This document shows positions 9,271 to 50,511 of a DNA stretch of 64,000 nt, piece after piece. The DNA is taken from assembly GCA_965205855.1 (NCBI GenBank), contig OZ242184.1:959454-1023453 (forward strand). Direction: 5' to 3'. A program made the position numbers and the translations under genes. Position 1 is the stretch's first letter, and every line of letters begins with the position of its first letter. This DNA is from Thermodesulfobacteriota bacterium (GTDB lineage: Bacteria; Desulfobacterota_D; UBA1144; Nemesobacterales; Mycalebacteriaceae). A model generated the notes under the pieces. It made no database searches, was not told where the DNA came from, and worked only from the letters and a program-made list of their open reading frames with translations.

Positions 9271-10761
9271 TTACTCTATCCTGTAGTTCGGCGCTTCGCG
9301 GGTGATTATCACATCATGGACATGTCCTTCTCTCTGCCCCGCACCTGTTACTTGGACAAATTTTGAATGTTTTTTGAGCTTCTCTATATCCGTACAACCG
9401 ACATATCCCATGCCCGACCTTAATCCGCCGACTATCTGATATACAATCGCTCCGAGACTGCCCCTGTATGGGACTCTGCCCTCTATGCCTTCGGGAACAA
9501 GTTTTCCCGTTTCCACCACTTTTTCCTGAGAGTATCTGTCGCGGCTTTGCCCTCCGCGCATTGACTCAATCGAGCCCATTCCCCTGTAAACTTTGTAGGT
9601 TCTCCCCTGAAACAGAACCACCTCTCCGGGCGCCTCATCGGTTCCCGCGAAAATATTTCCCATCATCACAGATGACGCACCGAATGCAATTGCCTTTACC
9701 ACATCCCCGGAAAACTTCACCCCACCGTCCGCTATGACCGGAATCCCACGGCGACGCGCGACTGAATACACATCCGAAACCGCCGTTATTTGAGGCATTC
9801 CCACGCCCGCGACAACTCTTGTCGTGCAGATTGAGCCGGGACCGACACCCACCTTCAGAGCGTCCGCGCCGGCTTCCATAAGAACCTTCGCGGCTTCTGC
9901 GGTCGCTATATTGCCCGCCACAACCTCAATACCGGAAAAGTTGGATTTAATCTCTCTAACACTTTCAATAACTCTTTGTGAATGCGCGTGCGCCGTATCA
10001 ACAAAAATCACATCACAACCGGCGGCTTTGACCTTCTCAACCCTTTCATCCCTGTCAGAACTGACTCCGACTGCCGCCGCGCACCTAAGCCTTCCCAAAC
10101 CGTCCTTTGACGCGGTGGGAAACTTTCTTATCTTCTCTATGTCCTTCATTGTTATCATTCCCTTGAGGCGGAACTTTGAATCTACCACGGGTAGTTTCTC
10201 AATGCGGAATTTATGAAGCAAAGCGGTCGCTTTGTCGGTTGTAATCTTCCCCTCTCTTACGGTAACAAGTTTGTCCTTCGGCGTCATTATCTCTTTGACC
10301 AAACGGGAGACACGTTTCTCAAACCTTAAATCCCGATTGGTTATGATGCCGACAAGAACTCCGTCATTCTCGGTTACCGGAAGACCGGTTATGGAGTTTG
10401 AGTTCATGATTTCCAGAGCGTTCTTAGCCGTATGGGAGGGGCGGACGGTAAGCGGGTTGACTATCATTCCGCTTTCGTATTTTTTTACTTTTTCCACCTC
10501 CGCCGCCTGGGAATCCACGGCAAGATTTCTGTGAATTACGCCAATCCCGCCCTCCTGAGCCATAGATATGGCGGTTTTGGATTCGGTAACGGTGTCCATC
10601 GCCGCGCTGATAAGCGGAATATTCAGTTTTATTGATTTTGTAAGCGAGGTTGAAACATCAACCTCGTCAGGGAGAACCGCAGAATAAGACGGAACAAGCA
10701 GTATGTCGTCAAATGTGAGGGTTTGTTCAACTTTTTTGTCCGGCATCTTCAAACTCCGCAT
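9271..10761 (-). CDS. guaB: IMP dehydrogenase
   Basis: Catalytic loop [16 protein letters not shown], an inserted CBS pair, and GGLRSGMGY near the C-terminus. Confidence 0.95.
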
Positions 10762-10778
10762 AGGAATATGAACGGCTG

Positions 10779-11315
10779 TTATTTCTTCCCCGCCGCTTTC
10801 CGGTTGGTTTTTCTCGCGGTTGCGGAAGAGGTTTTTGGGGTTACGGATTTCTCGGATGATTTCTTTGCGGCGGGGAGGTTCTTTTTCGCAGATGCAGACT
10901 TCACCGGAGTCTTGGTCTTATTTGAAGAGGTTGCTTTTTGAGACAGTTTTTTCGGAGCTGTCTTTTTCGGAGACGGTTTCTTGGAAGGCGATTTTTTCGG
11001 CGCCGTAACGGCGAGTTTGGAATTGGTATCGCCAGACGGCTTTTGAGTGAAGATATCCACCACCTTTTCCCGCAACTCCGAATGAGCAACGGTAAGTTCT
11101 ATCTCAATCTCCTGAGTCTTTTCGCCAACCACTACAAAAACCGGCATTATGCCTATAAAAGTTGTTCTTTTTTTGTCGCTGTCAACCTTCTCAAAATCAA
11201 GCGCCGTCATCAGTTTCTTCGGAAGTCCCTGCAATATGGTTTCGCCAAGATGAATGCTCTGTTGAGGAAGGAGCCCGTCCTGACTTATACTGAGTTTTAT
11301 AACAGTAGGTTTCAT
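10779..11315 (-). CDS. Hypothetical protein with a Lys/Ser/Pro/Ala-rich histone-H1-like C-terminal tail
   Basis: An N-terminal module of about 100 aa is followed by [74 protein letters not shown]. Confidence 0.55.
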
Positions 11316-41201: not shown

Positions 41202-42311
41202 TTATTCTTCGCGGTCTGGCAGCCTGTAGCTGGTGCTTCGTCCACCACCGGGGTTCTGAATAAAGATGCCTCGTTCTTTCAGTTCTTGAATATCACGAAG
41301 CGCCGTATCATTTGAACACTTGGCCAGCTTGGCGTATTTCGAGGTATTCATAAAGCCTTCAAAATCATCTTCAAGCATACGGTTGATGATCTGCCGCTGC
41401 CGATCATTAACAGGCTTTTGATTGATTATATCCCAGAGCTGCGCCTTGAACAGCACATTGCCAAGCGTCGTTTCAGCATTGCTAATGGCCCGGCCAAGGC
41501 AATCCAAGAACCATGACAGCCACTCCGTAATATCAGGTGTAGCGCGTTGTTGCGCTTCAAGTTGATTGTAATATTGTTTGCGCTCGGCTTCGATTTGGGA
41601 TGAAAGACTGTAAAAACGATCTGGCGTGCCATCTGCGCGAGCAAGTGCCATGTCACCAATGGCTCTGGCAATCCGTCCATTCCCATCTTCAAACGGATGG
41701 ATTGTCACAAACCATAGGTGGGCAATACCTGCTCTGATAACAGGATCAGTATCATCTTCACTTTCCAGCCATGTTAGAAATGCACCCATTTCCTTTTTAA
41801 GGCGCTCTGCACTTGGGGCTTCAAAATGGACCTTTTTTTTGCCAATAGGGCCGGAAATAACCTGTATGGGACCAGCGTCAATAGTGCGCCAGCCACCAAC
41901 GGTGATTTTGTGCATACCGCTGCGTCCTGTTGGGAATAATGCCGCATGCCAGTCAAACAAACGATATTTTGTCAGCGGCTTAGAGAATTGTTGCGTAGCA
42001 TCCAGCATCATCTCCACAATACCTTCAACGTCGTGGCTTGCAGGGATAAATCCGGCAATATCAATTCCGAGCCTACGGGCAATGGAAGAGCGCACTTCTT
42101 CTGGGTTTAGGTTCTCACCTTCAATGGCCGATGATTTAACCACGTCATTGGTTAGCGTGCTAAGAGAAGCCTCACGTTTAAGCTCAAAGCCAAGCCCCTC
42201 CATGCGCCCCAGCAAACGACCTTGGTGATGACGTATATCAGCCAGCTTGGACGCAAGGGTTTCTGCATCCCATATAAAGCTTGGCCAGTTTTGATGTTCA
42301 TGAATCCACAT
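41202..42311 (-). CDS. Fic-family protein (class II; DUF4172-type N-terminus, C-terminal wHTH)
   Basis: Fic motif HPFEDGNGRIARA, intramolecular inhibitory motif SSAIEGE ([ST]xxxE[GN]), N-terminus MWIHEHQNWPSFIWD. Start placed at ATG 42311; the tracked start 42320 is a GTG. Confidence 0.9.
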   Translation of the reverse strand: MWIHEHQNWPSFIWDAETLASKLADIRHHQGRLLGRMEGLGFELKREASLSTLTNDVVKSSAIEGENLNPEEVRSSIARRLGIDIAGFIPASHDVEGIVEMMLDATQQFSKPLTKYRLFDWHAALFPTGRSGMHKITVGGWRTIDAGPIQVISGPIGKKKVHFEAPSAERLKKEMGAFLTWLESEDDTDPVIRAGIAHLWFVTIHPFEDGNGRIARAIGDMALARADGTPDRFYSLSSQIEAERKQYYNQLEAQQRATPDITEWLSWFLDCLGRAISNAETTLGNVLFKAQLWDIINQKPVNDRQRQIINRMLEDDFEGFMNTSKYAKLAKCSNDTALRDIQELKERGIFIQNPGGGRSTSYRLPDREE

Positions 42312-42312
42312 A

Positions 42313-42413
42313 TTAATCACCGCATTATTTAAGGTGATTATAAGACTTATTCACCCCACGGTCAAAGCAATACCTGCACAATATGCGGTGATTAACGCTG
42401 CTATTCACCGCAT
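42313..42413. repeat. Three copies of the 9-mer TCACCGCAT (two direct, one inverted), including a 13-bp perfect inverted repeat
   Basis: ttaatcaccgcat at 42313-42325, atgcggtgattaa at 42383-42395, tcaccgcat at 42405-42413. Located at and just upstream of the Fic start. Confidence 0.8.
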
Positions 42414-42487: not shown

Positions 42488-42514
42488 CAGAATGTGCAGA
42501 ATGTGCGGAATGTG
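42488..42514. repeat. 3 x 9-bp tandem repeat (cagaatgtg / cagaatgtg / cggaatgtg)
   Basis: Read directly in the intergenic region between Fic and the HTH gene. Confidence 0.85.
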
Positions 42515-42534
42515 TTGACCAGTTTCATCTGCTC

Positions 42535-42560
42535 GACTGTGCCGCATGACTGTGCCGCAT
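42535..42560. repeat. 2 x 13-bp perfect tandem repeat (gactgtgccgcat)
   Basis: Read directly. It shares the CCGCAT core with the 9-mers at 42313-42413. Confidence 0.85.
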
Positions 42561-42728
42561 AGTGACACCCCGAAAAGGTGACCAGCTCCGATGGCGAATA
42601 GAGAACCTGATAGTTTCCGTATAGCTGCATGACCTGTCTTATAACCTGGTTTCCTCGATAACTGACTTGATTATTCATCCATTCTCCTCTATTTTCAATC
42701 CATATATCCAGAGAAGGACATTAAAACT

Positions 42729-42920
42729 ATGCCCAATGATGACATTATGACCGTTAAAGAACTCGCCGATTATTTGAAGATTGCGGAGAAAACGGCCTAT
42801 CGATTCGCATCTGAGGGCAAGGTTCCGGGCTTCAAGGTGGGTAGCGCATGGCGGTTTCGAAAGAGCGAGGTAGATCGCTGGATCAGTGAGCAAGAACAAA
42901 ACAAAGAGGATAAAACATGA
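42729..42920 (+). CDS. Excisionase/MerR-type helix-turn-helix (HTH_17) DNA-binding protein
   Basis: [46 protein letters not shown]. Its stop overlaps the hsdM start (ATGA at 42917-42920). Confidence 0.75.
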
Positions 42921-44488
42921 CAGGAAACCAACAACGCGCTGCTCTACAAGGCCAAATCTGGAAGATCGCCAATGATGTTCGCGGTGCGGTCGATGGCTGG
43001 GACTTCAAGCAATATGTTCTCGGCACACTTTTCTACCGTTTTGTCAGTGAAAACTTTGCCAGCTATATTGAAGCCGATGATGACAGCATCGATTACGCCC
43101 GGCTTGCCGATGACGTGATTACGCCAGCAATCAAAGATGACGCCATCAAAACCAAGGGCTATTTTATCTACCCAGGTCAGCTCTTCGTCAATGTTGCCAA
43201 AACCGCCAACACCAATGAAAGCCTGAATACGGATATGGCTGACATTTTCGCTAAAATTGAGGCCTCGGCCAATGGCTACCCTTCTGAAGGCGACATCAAA
43301 GGCCTGTTTGCCGATTTTGACACCACCAGCAACCGCCTTGGCAATACGGTAACAGCGAAGAACGCACGACTCGCGGCTGTACTCAAAGGTGTGGCGGGGC
43401 TGGAATTTGGCGATTTTCACGGCAGCCAGATTGATCTGTTCGGTGATGCCTATGAATATCTCATACACAAGTACGCTGCCAATGCCGGAAAATCAGGCGG
43501 CGAATTCTTTACGCCGCAACATGTCTCCAAACTCATTGCCCAGCTTGCCATGCACAAGCAAACCAGCGTGAATAAAATTTATGACCCCGCCTGCGGTTCT
43601 GGCTCCTTGCTGTTACAAGCCAAAAAACATTTTGATGCCCATATTGTTGAAGAAGGTTTCTTCGGGCAAGAGCTCAACCACACTACCTACAATCTGGCGC
43701 GGATGAATATGTTTCTGCACAATATCAATTACGACAAGTTCAATATGCAGCTAGGCGATACGCTTATCAATCCGCACTTTGGCGAGGATAAACCCTTTGA
43801 TGCGATTGTTTCCAACCCGCCCTATTCGCTGAAATGGATTGGCTCGGACGATCCGACACTGATCAACGATGACCGTTTTGCGCCTGCGGGTGTGCTTGCC
43901 CCCAAATCCAAGGCCGACTTTGGCTTTGTTCTTCATGCCTTGAGTTATCTTTCCGGCAAGGGCCGTGCGGCGATTGTTTGCTTTCCCGGCATTTTTTACC
44001 GTGGGGGCGCAGAACAAAAAATCAGAAAATATCTGGTTGATAACAACTATGTGGAAACCGTGATTTCACTCGCGCCCAACCTGTTTTACGGCACCACCAT
44101 TGCCGTGACGATTTTGGTGCTGGCGAAAAACAAGCCTGACACCAACATCCAGTTTATTGATGCCAGCGGTGAAGAATTCTTTAAAAAAGAGACCAACAAT
44201 AACCTGATGGTTGATGCGCATATTCAAAAGATTATGCAGATGTTCGACAGCAAGCTGAAGGTCGGTCACGTGGCCGAAACCGCGCCCTATGAAAAGATTG
44301 TTGCCAATGATTACAATCTGTCGGTCAGCTCCTACGTAGAAGCGAAAGACACAAGAGAGGTGATTGATATCACTGAACTCAATGCAGCAATCAAAACCAC
44401 CGTTAGTAAGATTGACCAACTGCGTTCCGATATCGATGCCATCGTTGTGGAGATTGACCTGCCTGCCGGCAGGCAGGAGCATGAGTGA
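42917..44488 (+). CDS. hsdM: Type I restriction-modification system, methyltransferase subunit
   Basis: HsdM_N-like N-terminus [32 protein letters not shown] motif DPACGSG, catalytic NPPY ([10 protein letters not shown]). 523 aa. Confidence 0.95.
44458..44477 (+). repeat. Perfect 20-bp GC-rich palindrome (cctgcctgcc|ggcaggcagg) overlapping the GIY-YIG Shine-Dalgarno
   Basis: Read directly. The 3' arm runs into AGGAG (44475-44479), 8 nt upstream of ATG 44488. Confidence 0.85.
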
Positions 44489-44739
44489 TGTTTTACACAT
44501 ATATTTTACTATGCAGTAATGGTTCTTATTACAAAGGTTTCACAAATGACCTTGAGAAGCGCTATCAGCAACATTTAAACGGCACTGGTGCAAAACATAC
44601 AGCAAAGCATAGGCCCATAAAAATAGCTTACTATGAAACCTATAAAACAGAACAAGAAGCAGTTGCGCGTGAAAAGTATTTTAAGTCTGGTTCTGGTCGT
44701 GAATGGTTAAAGCAACATATTGAAGGGCTAGAATCATGA
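44488..44739 (+). CDS. GIY-YIG nuclease-family protein (UPF0213/YhbQ-like)
   Basis: [29 protein letters not shown]...REKYFKSGSGREWL. Its ATG shares a base with the hsdM TGA (TGATG). Confidence 0.85.
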   Translation: MFYTYILLCSNGSYYKGFTNDLEKRYQQHLNGTGAKHTAKHRPIKIAYYETYKTEQEAVAREKYFKSGSGREWLKQHIEGLES

Positions 44740-44879
44740 GCAATGTGAGTTACATGGAGAAACTGCTGGATGGTGCCGAGGTGGACTGGAACGCAGTGGA
44801 TAAAGATGAGCATCTTTCTGCCATGCAGCGCATCTGGCTGGATCTGATTCTTAAAGCAGAAAGGGAACTATATACTTGA
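44736..44879 (+). pseudogene. 47-codon ORF whose first 18 residues resemble a type IC HsdS N-terminus (hsdS 5' remnant)
   Basis: MSNVSYMEKLLDGAEVDW followed by unrelated sequence and a stop. Its ATG overlaps the GIY-YIG TGA (ATGA). A hairpin gctcccc/ggggagc follows directly at 44881-44905. Confidence 0.4.
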
Positions 44880-45034
44880 CGCTCCCCCAGCTAAAGCAGG
44901 GGAGCTCCTGAAAGAACGGAGTTTCTCGCGGATAAAGCTGGTCAGACTTTTGATGTAACGCCCTTCACGTTTTTTCTATAGATATCTTTGATAATTACAT
45001 GATAAAGTACGGCTTTGCCGTATATAATTAACCC

Positions 45035-45343
45035 ATGAACACAATCATCGAAACCAGGGGATTCAGCGCAAAGGCAACTAAAATTTGGACATCAGTACAA
45101 TATGAAAATTTTGTTTTGTACATTGCCGAAAACCCTGACGCTGGTAAAGTGGTTTCCGGTTCTGGTGGAGTAAGAAAGATTCGCTGGGATAAAGAAGGCG
45201 GAGGAAAACAAGGTGGGGTACGAGTCATTTATTTTAATAGTTCTGACCAAAAAACATGGCTTCTTACCCTGTACGCAAAAAATGAACGTGAAAATATTCC
45301 GGCTCATGAATTAAAGAGAATTAAGGAGGCTATCAATGGCTAA
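45035..45343 (+). CDS. higB: HigB-2-type (RelE-superfamily) toxin
   Basis: GSGGVRKIRWDKEGGGKQGGVRVIYFNSSDQKTWLLTLYAKNERENI parallels Vibrio HigB-2 (GTGGLRKIRV...GKRGGSRIIYY...LLTIYGKNE) as recalled. Confidence 0.75.
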   Translation: MNTIIETRGFSAKATKIWTSVQYENFVLYIAENPDAGKVVSGSGGVRKIRWDKEGGGKQGGVRVIYFNSSDQKTWLLTLYAKNERENIPAHELKRIKEAING

Positions 45344-45623
45344 GGCTAAGAAAATGAGTAAAGCTGGACAAGAACTACTTGATGATGTGCGAGCTATCAA
45401 AGCTGGCGCACCGGCTAAAGTCTGGACACCAGAAAAGTTGCTTGTTATTTCTGTTAGAAAGCAGCTAAAAAAATCACAGCTATCCTTTTCAAAATTGTTG
45501 GGTGTCCCTTTAGGCACAATCAGAGATTGGGAACAAGGACGTAAGCAGCCTGACAGTGCTGCGGTAACTCTCATTAAGGTCGCTCAAAAAAACCCTAAAG
45601 TATTAGAGGAAGTCTCTGGTTAA
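45336..45623 (+). CDS. higA: HigA-2-type XRE-HTH antitoxin
   Basis: SQLSFSKLLGVPLGTIRDWEQGRKQPDSAAVTLIKVAQKNPKVL. Overlaps the higB 3' end by 8 nt. Confidence 0.75.
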   Translation: MAKAKKMSKAGQELLDDVRAIKAGAPAKVWTPEKLLVISVRKQLKKSQLSFSKLLGVPLGTIRDWEQGRKQPDSAAVTLIKVAQKNPKVLEEVSG

Positions 45624-45663
45624 TGTAACGACAAAAAAGTTAGCTAAGAAATTAAGACAAATT

Positions 45664-46851
45664 ATGAGCAAAATTGATGAATTGATAAACGAACATTGCC
45701 CGGATGGGGTGGAATATACAACTCTAGGAGGAATAGGTAAGTTATCAAGAGGACGCGTAATGTCAAAGGATTATCTGCGGGATAATGCTGGAGAATATCC
45801 CGTTTATTCTTCGCAAACAGCCAGCAATGGAGTGTTTGGTCGAATTAACACTTACGACCAAGATGGAACATTCATAACATGGACAACTGACGGTGCGAAT
45901 GCTGGTTCAATTTTTTTTCGTGAGAATGAAAAGTTTAGTATCACAAATGTTTGTGGTTTGATCAGCAATAGTTCGCCGGAAAAAATTGATCTCAAATTTC
46001 TTTATTATGTCTTATGTGTTACCGCAAAAAGTTATGTGTATAGCGGCATGGGCAACCCAAAGCTCATGAGTAATGTAATGTCCACGATTAAGGTTCCCCT
46101 CCCCCCCCTTCCGGTACAACAAGAAATCGTGCGGATTCTGGACGCATTTACCTCCCTTACAGCCGAGCTTACAGCCGAGCTTACAGCCGAGCTTACAGCC
46201 CGCAAAAAACAATACAACTATTATCGTGATCAACTGCTGAGTTTTGATGGGTCTGATATATTCGAAGATTTAGGAAAGGTTTGTCATGTCTCCTCGGGCG
46301 GCACTCCATCAAGATCTAAAAGAGAATTTTGGGAAAATGGTAATGTTCCTTGGCTCAAATCCGAGTCATGTAATAATGAGTCCGTTTATTATGCAGATAA
46401 TTTCATAACAGAGTTGGGATTAAAGAACTCTAGCGCCAAACTATTAGAAAAAGACACTGTTTTGATCGCCTTAGTTGGTGCCACCATTTTCAAAACTGCT
46501 TACCTAGAATTTGAAGGTACAACTAATCAAAATATTGCAAACATCAAATCAATAGATCACAACGTGCTAAATAATAAGTTTGTTTTTTATTACATAACAA
46601 ATTTGTACAGCGAACTAAAGTCCAAGATGCGTAATTATGGGATGCTAAATTTATCAACACTGAAACAGTTCAAAATCCCCATCCCGCCACTTCCGGTACA
46701 GGAAGAAATTGTTGCCATACTCGATAAATTTGATGCGCTGACAAACTCTATTAGCGAAGGTTTGCCGCGTGAAATTGAATTACGAAACAAGCAATATGAA
46801 TACTACCGCGACCTGCTTTTGAGCTTCCCCAAACCTGAGGCGGCAGCGTAG
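45664..46851 (+). CDS. hsdS: Type I restriction-modification system, specificity subunit (type IC-like)
   Basis: Two TRDs separated by the conserved IVRILDAFTSLTAELTAELTAELTARKKQYNYYRDQLLSF. Distal conserved region IVAILDKFDALTNSISEGLPREIELRNKQYEYYRDLLLSFPKPE. Confidence 0.95.
   Translation: MSKIDELINEHCPDGVEYTTLGGIGKLSRGRVMSKDYLRDNAGEYPVYSSQTASNGVFGRINTYDQDGTFITWTTDGANAGSIFFRENEKFSITNVCGLISNSSPEKIDLKFLYYVLCVTAKSYVYSGMGNPKLMSNVMSTIKVPLPPLPVQQEIVRILDAFTSLTAELTAELTAELTARKKQYNYYRDQLLSFDGSDIFEDLGKVCHVSSGGTPSRSKREFWENGNVPWLKSESCNNESVYYADNFITELGLKNSSAKLLEKDTVLIALVGATIFKTAYLEFEGTTNQNIANIKSIDHNVLNNKFVFYYITNLYSELKSKMRNYGMLNLSTLKQFKIPIPPLPVQEEIVAILDKFDALTNSISEGLPREIELRNKQYEYYRDLLLSFPKPEAAA
46156..46200 (+). 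repeat. 12-bp tandem repeat cttacagccgag x 3.75 (encodes LTAE/TAEL units) in the central conserved region of hsdS
   Basis: Read directly: units at 46156-67, 46168-79 and 46180-91, plus a partial unit at 46192-46200. Confidence 0.95.
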
Positions 46852-46852
46852 G

Positions 46853-46977
46853 ATGAGCCGGACACTATCTAATGAGACCGTTGCGGAGCCAACGCTGCAA
46901 GAAAAGCAAACCGTTGCTTTTCTTTTGAAGCACTTGCTTAAAGAATATAATATCAAACAGACTGGCGAACAGAAATA

Positions 46978-46978
<1 letters not shown>
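46853..46978 (+). CDS. 41-codon micro-ORF tightly packed between hsdS and hsdR
   Basis: [41 protein letters not shown]. Its ATG lies 1 nt after the hsdS TAG, and its TAA overlaps the hsdR ATG (TAATG at 46976-46980). Confidence 0.3.

Positions 46979-50079
<3,101 letters not shown>

Positions 50080-50418: not shown

Positions 50419-50511
<93 letters not shown>

Follow-up and report, generated by a model that had tools for sequence, protein, structure and literature searches.

Why does a type IC restriction-modification (R-M) operon carry a small nuclease gene, a broken open reading frame (ORF) and a toxin–antitoxin (TA) pair between its methylase gene hsdM and its specificity gene hsdS? The question is raised by a 64,000-nucleotide (nt) stretch of contig OZ242184.1 from a Thermodesulfobacteriota bacterium; this whole stretch is referred to here as the window, and coordinates follow its numbering. 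An original prediction, made from the sequence alone, had described hsdM followed by a GIY-YIG gene, a stub and a TA pair, and only afterwards by hsdS and hsdR, and had proposed the inserted genes to be second-line effectors resembling the anticodon nuclease PrrC. Gene order was checked by ORF listing combined with family scans (Pfam, NCBIfam and PADLOC), and all four elements were at the places described, the locus reading HTH gene–hsdM, GIY-YIG, 47-codon relic, higB-2/higA-2, hsdS, hsdR. As to its origin, we consider it somewhat better than an even bet that the hsdM–hsdS interval is a hotspot for cassettes, holding a unit of palindrome plus GIY-YIG gene, a relic of hsdS and a Fic gene, and an autonomous HigBA-2 module.

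A palindrome and a nuclease gene in the tail of hsdM

Comparison of empty and filled sites indicated that the last nine codons of hsdM (LPAGRQEHE) come from an inserted cassette. Type IC HsdM proteins from plasmids, 81-85% identical to that of the window, represent empty sites: they align only to residue 510-514, and their tails read ..AEIEG(x)n* or ..AEIEA*, with an ATGA overlap onto hsdS. At filled sites—those of the window and its relatives—hsdM ends in ..EID-LPAGRQ-xxx* and is followed by a nuclease ORF that itself ends in ..IEG(x)n* (..IEGLES* in the window), thereby recreating the ATGA junction with the next gene. The difference between the two states is exactly the palindrome plus the ORF.

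The unit is patchily distributed. None of 2157 plasmid records with a type IC hsdM carries the nuclease, and the LPAGRQ tail is present in 4 of the 119 nearest HsdM clusters (84-90% identity), leaving 115 (~96%) without it. The very nearest clusters (89-90%) are all empty, while the filled ones are 86-87% identical. The genome of the nearest relative contains two copies of the operon in which hsdM is directly followed by Fic and GIY-YIG is missing; one of them (L218, contig ctg24222_59x_c) lies directly upstream of a cas9-cas1-cas2 locus, and the second (L219) has the order hsdM-Fic-split hsdS-hsdR. Ancestries are discordant in locus L008, whose HsdM is 79-83% identical to one sublineage and whose GIY-YIG protein is 84-86% identical to the other. 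Insertions were found at several hsd positions as well as in unrelated genes.

The palindrome (CCTGCCTGCCGGCAGGCAGG, 44458-44477), overlooked in the original prediction, ends 10 nt before the GIY-YIG start codon. It is unique in the window, where none is expected by chance, and folds into a hairpin (stem 8 bp, loop 4 nt; z=-3.0 as DNA and -2.4 as RNA); direct reading of the sequence reveals no stop codon in any of its six frames. Its 3' arm continues into, and overlaps, the Shine-Dalgarno sequence AGGAG located 8 nt before the GIY-YIG ATG. As predicted, this ATG shares its A with the hsdM stop codon (TGATG, 44486-44490), and the nuclease is probably made by termination-reinitiation at this site. 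The tight translational coupling had been taken as a sign of co-regulation with the methylase rather than of random insertion; we ascribe it instead to the unit having been inserted in frame into the hsdM tail. The features of the locus are as follows.

42729-42920, plus strand: HTH_17 gene, excisionase-like and MAD1-like, 63 aa (PF12728 E=1e-16; NF047737)
42917-44488, plus strand: hsdM, type IC methylase (TIGR00497 E=1e-194)
44458-44477, no strand: perfect 20-nt palindrome CCTGCCTGCCGGCAGGCAGG, within the last hsdM codons
44488-44739, plus strand: GIY-YIG nuclease, 83 aa, single domain, UPF0213/Slx1-like (PF01541 E=3e-17)
44736-44879, plus strand: 47-codon relic ORF coupled by ATGA (hsdS 5' end plus Fic fragments)
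44999-45028, plus strand: sigma-70-like promoter match (10 of 12 positions; weak evidence)
45035-45343, plus strand: HigB-2-type toxin of the RelE superfamily (PF06296 E=1.5e-8; HigB-2 in the PDB, E=1.5e-14)
45336-45623, plus strand: HigA-2-type HTH antitoxin (MqsA_antitoxin/HTH_3; HigA-2 in the PDB, E=2.2e-9)
45664-46851, plus strand: hsdS, full length, mosaic (PF01420 E=7e-65)
46978-50079, plus strand: hsdR, type IC, with EcoR124_C domain (TIGR00348 E=8e-205; PF12008 E=1.5e-68)

The palindrome accompanies the nuclease and also occurs alone

The same 20-mer precedes GIY-YIG homologues that are only 43-89% identical, in reading frames belonging to the hsdM tail, the hsdS N-terminus (MSKxExLIxxLCPD-LPAGRQ..), the end of a conserved HsdS helix (..GKLVxPACRQAG..) or non-hsd DNA. 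Within 948 kb of loci selected for GIY-YIG, 26 of 42 copies (≤2 mismatches) lie 0-150 nt upstream of a GIY-YIG domain, a zone that makes up ~1.5% of the sequence, and 25 of 97 domains have a palindrome at this distance. It lies between 8 and 119 nt from the ORF. In a set of 29 distinct sites, 18 of them perfect, conservation exceeds 90% at the 20 core positions and is lacking in the flanks. The peptides encoded by the palindrome (PxxRQ, RQAG) were found ≤70 aa upstream of 29 and ≤45 aa downstream of 42 out of 110 domains, the background rate being 0.006 per 70 aa. Nested and tandem palindromes exist in L006, L015 and L023. Other hsd junctions bear palindrome-like insertions too, among them LLD[LSAEQAG]GVEVEW in the L013 hsdS gene and those bordering the guest genes of L014.

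In addition, the palindrome occurs without the gene. At least 120 exact solo copies are present in metagenome contigs, where ~1-2 would be expected by chance (our estimate from 4^20; no total base count was available for the collection), and viral contigs contribute 42 copies in 35 stretches. Long ORFs contain 47 of the 127 copies among the metagenome matches listed. No family recurs more often than GIY-YIG within 400 nt of solo copies (5 loci vs 2 for any other cluster), and in the viral case with a GIY-YIG gene the palindrome is again upstream, at 28 nt. The solo palindromes (L094-L213 in metagenomes, L222-L256 in viral contigs) have diverse contexts, including long ORFs, tRNA-like fragments (L166, L172, L128) and short-period AT-rich repeats; some loci are multi-copy, L153 holding four palindromes and a single viral contig of 29.5 kb holding six (L242, L249, L250). 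A preference for the loops of pre-existing hairpins was rejected, as flank complementarity was 2.07 of 8 vs 2.05 in a shifted control, although a few cases do have that appearance. Interruption of functional tRNA genes was likewise rejected: since ARAGORN calls only intact neighbouring tRNAs, the interrupted pieces are fragments. A targeted search located IS200-like ORFs near or at four more solo copies. Sites with such ORFs are L014 (11214-11741), L018 (10558-11088), L040, L104, L108, L114 and L135, the palindrome of L135 lying within the transposase-like ORF.

A lineage of minimal nucleases housed in type I hsd genes

The UPF0213 GIY-YIG fold proposed for the 83-aa protein held up. Besides the PF01541 match, an AF2 model (pLDDT 93.8; a three-strand sheet plus helices) matched GIY-YIG structures; phmmer against the PDB retrieved the UPF0213 nuclear magnetic resonance structures 1ywl (E=7.5e-14) and 1zg2 (E=8e-11), and Foldseek ranked 1zg2 and 1ywl first, followed by the Slx1 structures 7cq3 and 6seh, with UvrC far lower. 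The protein is a stand-alone domain in the ~80-110 aa size class of UPF0213 (YhbQ, EF2693, BH0048), lacks the C-terminal Asn region of the UvrC lineage, and has no DNA-binding, sensor or regulatory domain. The catalytic residues Y3/Y5, Y15-K16-G17, R25, H29 and E62 are invariant in an alignment of 28 homologues, and the equivalent columns are ≥90% conserved among 109 cluster representatives. No PADLOC defence model matched the nuclease, which belongs to a widespread and apparently undescribed lineage of minimal GIY-YIG nucleases.

The original prediction had proposed to look for hsdM–GIY-YIG–hsdS neighbourhoods in other genomes. Scanning a single genome for each species yielded 80 loci, and the association proved to be conserved beyond the contig, in type IC loci of many phyla and much more broadly than anticipated. 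Every locus with a homologue of ≥55% identity is a type IC hsd locus; the hosts are Holosporales, Methylobacter, Methylococcaceae, Wenzhouxiangellaceae, Flavobacteriales, Oscillospiraceae, Pelotomaculum, Fibrobacter, Mariprofundus, Ruminococcus, Lachnospiraceae and Desulfobacteraceae. The 1-nt stop/start overlap of hsdM and GIY-YIG recurs in gamma-, alpha- and zeta-proteobacteria, Bacteroidota, Firmicutes and Fibrobacter. Homologues of 75-85% identity on metagenome contigs all stand behind hsdM with this overlap and are joined by a 4-nt overlap to a following gene that varies (RhuM, Fic or hsdS). In three Flavobacteriales genomes (L016-L018), hsdM and GIY-YIG form one continuous ORF.

To define the architecture of the relatives, 1.84 billion cluster representatives were searched exhaustively and the nearest 109 (clusters at 50% identity) analysed. 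Most are long proteins with an embedded GIY-YIG domain. In 68 of the 109, Methylase_S is part of the same polypeptide, the nuclease domain occupying either end of HsdS or the stretch between its two target-recognition domains; N6_Mtase and HSDR_N fusions account for two representatives each. Trigger factor, an NDP-hexose dehydratase, the DNA-binding domain of MGMT, TfoX, desulfoferrodoxin and DUF1156 are each the fusion partner in a single case. Complete hsdR-hsdM-hsdS[GIY] operons of the EcoEI type exist in Treponema, Fibrobacter, Leptospirales and Rubritalea, so the domain does not take the place of HsdR; a replacement of HsdR by GIY-YIG was rejected, hsdR being present in loci with HsdS-GIY fusions. 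The lineage lives almost only in type I hsd genes, in hsdS far above hsdM or hsdR, and across many phyla.

The original prediction knew of no described GIY-YIG/HigBA-in-hsd arrangement. A literature search covering GIY-YIG with hsdS or hsdM, the LPAGRQ peptide and the palindrome retrieved no description of it in the papers searched; the only trace is one row of a table in PMC9881135, in which a GIY-YIG CDS is listed between hsd core genes without comment. The palindrome, the embedding in HsdS and HsdM and the breadth of the association are in no paper searched.

Several further variants were observed. One 655-aa HsdS (P0222) contains a tandem duplication of the GIY-YIG domain, each of the two copies followed by an RQAG peptide, and a Chitinophagales genome (L070) has three adjacent GIY-YIG ORFs. 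A second, different small GIY-YIG gene (YIMASKRNGTLYTGVT..NPEWKDL), which may be of the cd10448/Ssn type, lies downstream of hsdS in L017 (~9433-9798) and L023 (~10946-11239). Among distant homologues (45-53% identity; L046, L048, L049, L054, L057, L075, L081, L086, L089), some start directly after the 3' end of a tRNA and others have different GC-rich hairpins upstream (CCCGCCCGC.., CCCTGAGCGnAGnCGAAGGG), suggesting that other nuclease-hairpin pairs exist.

Other guests between hsdM and hsdS

The 47-codon ORF behind the nuclease had been described as an hsdS-like stub coupled by ATGA. The coupling stands, and so do about 18 hsdS-like codons: the first ~18 residues (MSNVSYMEKLLDGAEVDW, 44736-44789) are a type IC HsdS N-terminus matching positions 1-23 of the PADLOC Specificity_I model. 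The remainder, however, consists of Fic fragments in permuted order, as found by tblastn with the Fic proteins of L006 and L014. Residues 16-32 (44781-44831) correspond to Fic residues 138-154 (82% identity to the L014 protein) and residues 32-42 (44829-44861) to Fic residues 123-133 (91% identity); the relic is also matched by the PADLOC model PDC-S04. The ORF is a decayed remnant of the common order hsdM-GIY-Fic-hsdS, which the locus once had and which is extant in L006, L014 and L067. An inverted repeat directly after the relic (GCTCCCC-N12-GGGGAGC, 44881-44906) has no T-run.

The TA pair, in which the toxin gene comes first and overlaps the antitoxin gene by 8 nt, keeps its proposed HigB-2/HigA-2 label since its best PDB sequence matches are the solved Vibrio proteins HigB-2 (5ja9, E=1.5e-14) and HigA-2 (5jaa, E=2.2e-9). 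A promoter-like site before higB-2 matches 10 of 12 positions, in a region overall no richer in such matches than shuffled sequence. Close HigB-2 homologues (73-78% identity) retain the same antitoxin and reside amid transposases, integrases and other TA pairs, none of them in an hsd locus, and the pair is absent from all other GIY-bearing hsd loci of the genome scan. The claimed link of HigBA to hsd is therefore not borne out, and HigBA-2 is an ordinary mobile guest of the locus. In L218, a truncated Fic gene is followed by a HigB(PF05015)/HTH pair, a Gp49/HTH_37 pair and an hsdS fragment; with these two different HigBA-type pairs, TA modules of different families are seen to land repeatedly in the hsdM–hsdS interval. 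Another small guest family of type IC loci is seen in L008, where a 23S_rRNA_IVP gene (four-helix bundle; 9501-9815) lies between hsdS and hsdR.

The host restriction system

HsdR bears EcoR124_C and HsdS bears a TAEL repeat, which assigns the system to type IC, in line with the original prediction; the system looks intact, in hsdM, hsdS and hsdR alike. The repeat (TAELx3, TAELTAELTAEL; residues 166-177, nt 46159-46194, 12 nt x 3) lies in the central conserved region of HsdS and is a hallmark of the EcoR124I family, being the spacer-length element known from EcoR124I, EcoR124II and EcoDXXI; variants such as TAELAAEL (L008) occur in related loci. A comparison of termini showed hsdS to be mosaic, its N-terminus (MSKIDELINEHCPDGVEY) deriving from the other type IC sublineage and its C-terminus from that of the window's hsdM and hsdR. 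The hsdS N-terminus normally paired with this hsdM is the one carried by the relic ORF.

At the 5' end of the operon, the HTH_17 gene overlaps the hsdM start by ATGA coupling. Its product scores 82.3 bits against the MADS MAD1 model (NF047737; cut-off 80), hsdM scoring far below the MAD2 cut-off, and is probably a controller-type regulator of the hsd operon. A DUF4172-Fic protein is encoded divergently upstream (41202-42320, minus strand; PADLOC SoFic E=7e-46), and a tRNA-Ser(gct) lies downstream (50421-50511). The SoFic-type gene and the tRNA on either side of the operon suggest a small defence island; a search for its boundaries turned up no att-type repeat of the tRNA-Ser ≥13 nt long. An Rfam scan of 42500-47000 returned nothing relevant.

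Comparison with known systems

By published description, the closest known system comprises the Ssn nucleases (SsnA; CDD cd10448) and their NTS/SRM repeats. Ssn proteins are single-domain GIY-YIG enzymes that cut single-stranded DNA (ssDNA) beside hairpin repeats, which border the nuclease's own gene and are also scattered over the genome, and NTS-ssnA-NTS has been likened to an insertion sequence (Chenal et al. 2025, PMC11893778). Like Ssn, the unit described here encodes a single-domain protein of ~85-95 aa without a DNA-binding domain, has a GC-rich inverted repeat on one or both sides of the gene, resembles a small insertion sequence, and has a repeat with many solo copies, counted here across metagenome contigs (≥120). 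In contrast to Ssn, the best sequence and structure matches of the nuclease are UPF0213 and Slx1, the palindrome is perfect and without an oriented flank, and the unit lies in coding sequence, in frame and overwhelmingly in type I hsd genes, whereas NTS repeats are rarely found in genes (2%, PMC11893778). Of genomes rich in the SRM repeat, 81% have an ssn gene. The palindrome also fails the SRM pattern: the consensus HGTCWY..YYVSBRH..WNVSBRG..RNCYNB has no match within 1 kb of the nuclease gene and one in the 64-kb window, vs 0.4 expected. On features that sequence can address, the unit would agree with the Ssn pair save for the SRM consensus and the UPF0213 affinity.

Other precedents share fewer traits. 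PrrC of EcoprrI is likewise an extra nuclease gene inside a type IC hsd cluster; the present nuclease has an unrelated fold and no NTPase or sensor domain, occupies a different position (hsdM tail or hsdS linkers), comes with a DNA palindrome and shows a patchy, mobile-like distribution. A GIY-YIG domain resembling that of Slx1 has been reported in the HsdR protein MCA0838 of Methylococcus capsulatus, a near-identical homologue of which lacks it (Dunin-Horkawicz et al. 2006, PMC1564403). This is the same kind of minimal domain, in frame in an Hsd subunit, reported as a single HsdR curiosity; the palindrome, the HsdS and HsdM cases and the breadth are not described there. Rickettsia palindromic elements and REP/RAYT resemble the unit in placing short palindromic DNA in coding genes with the frame kept and in tying repeats to one nuclease or transposase gene; they differ in that the present repeat spans only 18-21 nt, its partner is a GIY-YIG protein and not an HUH/Y1 transposase, and R-M genes are strongly preferred. 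With free-standing GIY-YIG homing endonucleases (Seg proteins, I-TevI) the unit has in common a gene at a conserved junction, presence/absence polymorphism and phylogenetic discordance; unlike them, it has neither a DNA-binding domain nor an intron, and the cassette carries its own palindrome.

A proposed mobile cassette and its alternatives

Starting from the observed anatomy, distribution, presence/absence polymorphism and palindrome-nuclease association, the locus may be pictured as follows. A unit of palindrome and GIY-YIG gene would have inserted in frame into the last codons of hsdM, such that hsdM reads through the palindrome and then stops. By analogy with SsnA and its NTS, the nuclease would recognise its own palindrome as a hairpin in ssDNA and nick beside it, and this nicking would help the cassette to spread and persist, by a process akin to homing or by provoking recombination. 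A likely side effect would be more cassette insertion and mosaicism of hsdS. The hsdS-5'/Fic relic would have decayed from an earlier hsdM-GIY-Fic-hsdS order, and HigBA-2 would have arrived independently, with or next to the recombinant hsdS. A wider version of this idea, which we put forward tentatively and hold to be well short of probable, is that the unit represents a previously unrecognised class of compact mobile element: it would insert in frame at linkers of type I R-M genes (in hsdM the tail; in hsdS the N-terminus, centre and C-terminus) by virtue of a stop-free palindrome, hairpin nicking would drive its spread, cassette insertion and the shuffling of target-recognition domains, and solo palindromes would be non-autonomous copies or targets.

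Several points weigh against a mobile cassette. Its activity and mobility are deduced from sequence-level evidence. The similarity which suggests that the nuclease C-terminus reuses the old hsdM tail is short (ATTGAAGG / IEG), and the palindrome lacks a match to the published SRM consensus. GIY-YIG adjoins 5 of ~125 metagenome copies among the matches listed and 1 of 42 viral copies; being far commoner than the gene, the palindrome could be an independent element. IS200-like/RAYT-like Y1 transposase ORFs occur in some GIY-bearing hsd loci or near solo palindromes, making this family a possible alternative partner.

Moreover, a domesticated, functional partner of the methylase complex would equally account for the extreme bias towards HsdS, the strictly conserved catalytic residues and the existence of HsdM and HsdS proteins with the domain in frame. 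Such a partner would be an accessory nuclease of the type I system, riding on M2S1 in free or fused form and contributing an activity missing from HsdR. It might, for instance, cut palindrome-bearing DNA in single-stranded or hairpin form that arrives with plasmids, by transformation or with ssDNA phages; SsnA is an ssDNA restriction factor in Neisseria (PMC11893778), and viral contigs contain the palindrome in up to six copies per 29.5-kb contig. It is the existence of HsdM and HsdS fusions, in several phyla and in complete hsdR-hsdM-hsdS operons, that makes such a functional tie a serious rival, yet the same domain is fused to unrelated proteins as well. Given these fusions, the nuclease may also be physically linked to the Hsd complex. 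The invariance of the catalytic residues and the conserved translational coupling to hsdM speak for this account; the lack of the cassette in ~96% of the closest relatives of hsdM and in every plasmid type IC locus examined, the selfish look of tandem copies and nested palindromes, and the lack of a PADLOC model match speak against it. We regard domestication as unlikely, if worth serious attention.

The original prediction saw the GIY-YIG protein, HigBA-2 or both as PrrC-like latent effectors, set free when anti-restriction proteins inhibit R-M. Its starting points remain: a type IC locus houses the genes, just as EcoprrI houses prrC (PMC12707154), coupling between nuclease and hsdM is tight, TA modules of other families recur in the same interval of the close relative L218, and candidate defence genes of the Fic-like PDC-S04 type commonly follow the nuclease. 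However, the nuclease has no sensor or regulatory domain and no similarity to PrrC, and scans with Pfam, NCBIfam and PADLOC gave only GIY-YIG, RelE and HTH hits and none for PrrC/RloC homology (an ABC-ATPase-like N-domain plus anticodon nuclease). The companion that defines the nuclease is a palindrome in the DNA rather than another protein; HigBA-2 homologues are without hsd linkage; and the patchy presence/absence pattern, the discordant phylogeny of L008 and the fusions to unrelated genes fit a mobile cassette. Of the overall interpretation, the conserved hsdM-nuclease linkage survives, whereas the HigBA-2 linkage and the PrrC analogy find no support, and we consider latent effectors improbable.

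That the palindrome is purely a gene-expression device—an mRNA hairpin over the Shine-Dalgarno sequence or an RNase III site, with unrelated solo copies—is very improbable: its 3' arm does overlap the AGGAG 8 nt before the ATG, its RNA fold has z=-2.4 and it stands upstream of the ORF at nearly all loci, but its sequence identity, beyond mere pairing, is kept across phyla and at 43-89% protein identity, it can be anywhere between 8 and 119 nt from the ORF, some copies are downstream of the domain, and ≥120 exact solo metagenome copies compare with the ~1-2 estimated from 4^20.

Implications

For annotation, HsdS, HsdM or HsdR proteins of odd length, LPAGRQ or PACRQAG peptides and hsdS "stubs" call for caution as signatures of such insertions. 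Whichever account applies, the nuclease and the 20-nt sequence constitute a testable enzyme-substrate pair across phyla, of practical interest after the Ssn work on ssDNA cutters. If the nuclease is functional within the host system, type I systems in many phyla would carry a second nuclease on their methylase/specificity complex, possibly one specific for ssDNA or hairpins. If instead the favoured reading of a mobile cassette is right, the unit would be a new way for selfish DNA to inhabit defence genes without destroying them, and could be an unrecognised source of mosaicism and guest-gene turnover in type I R-M loci.

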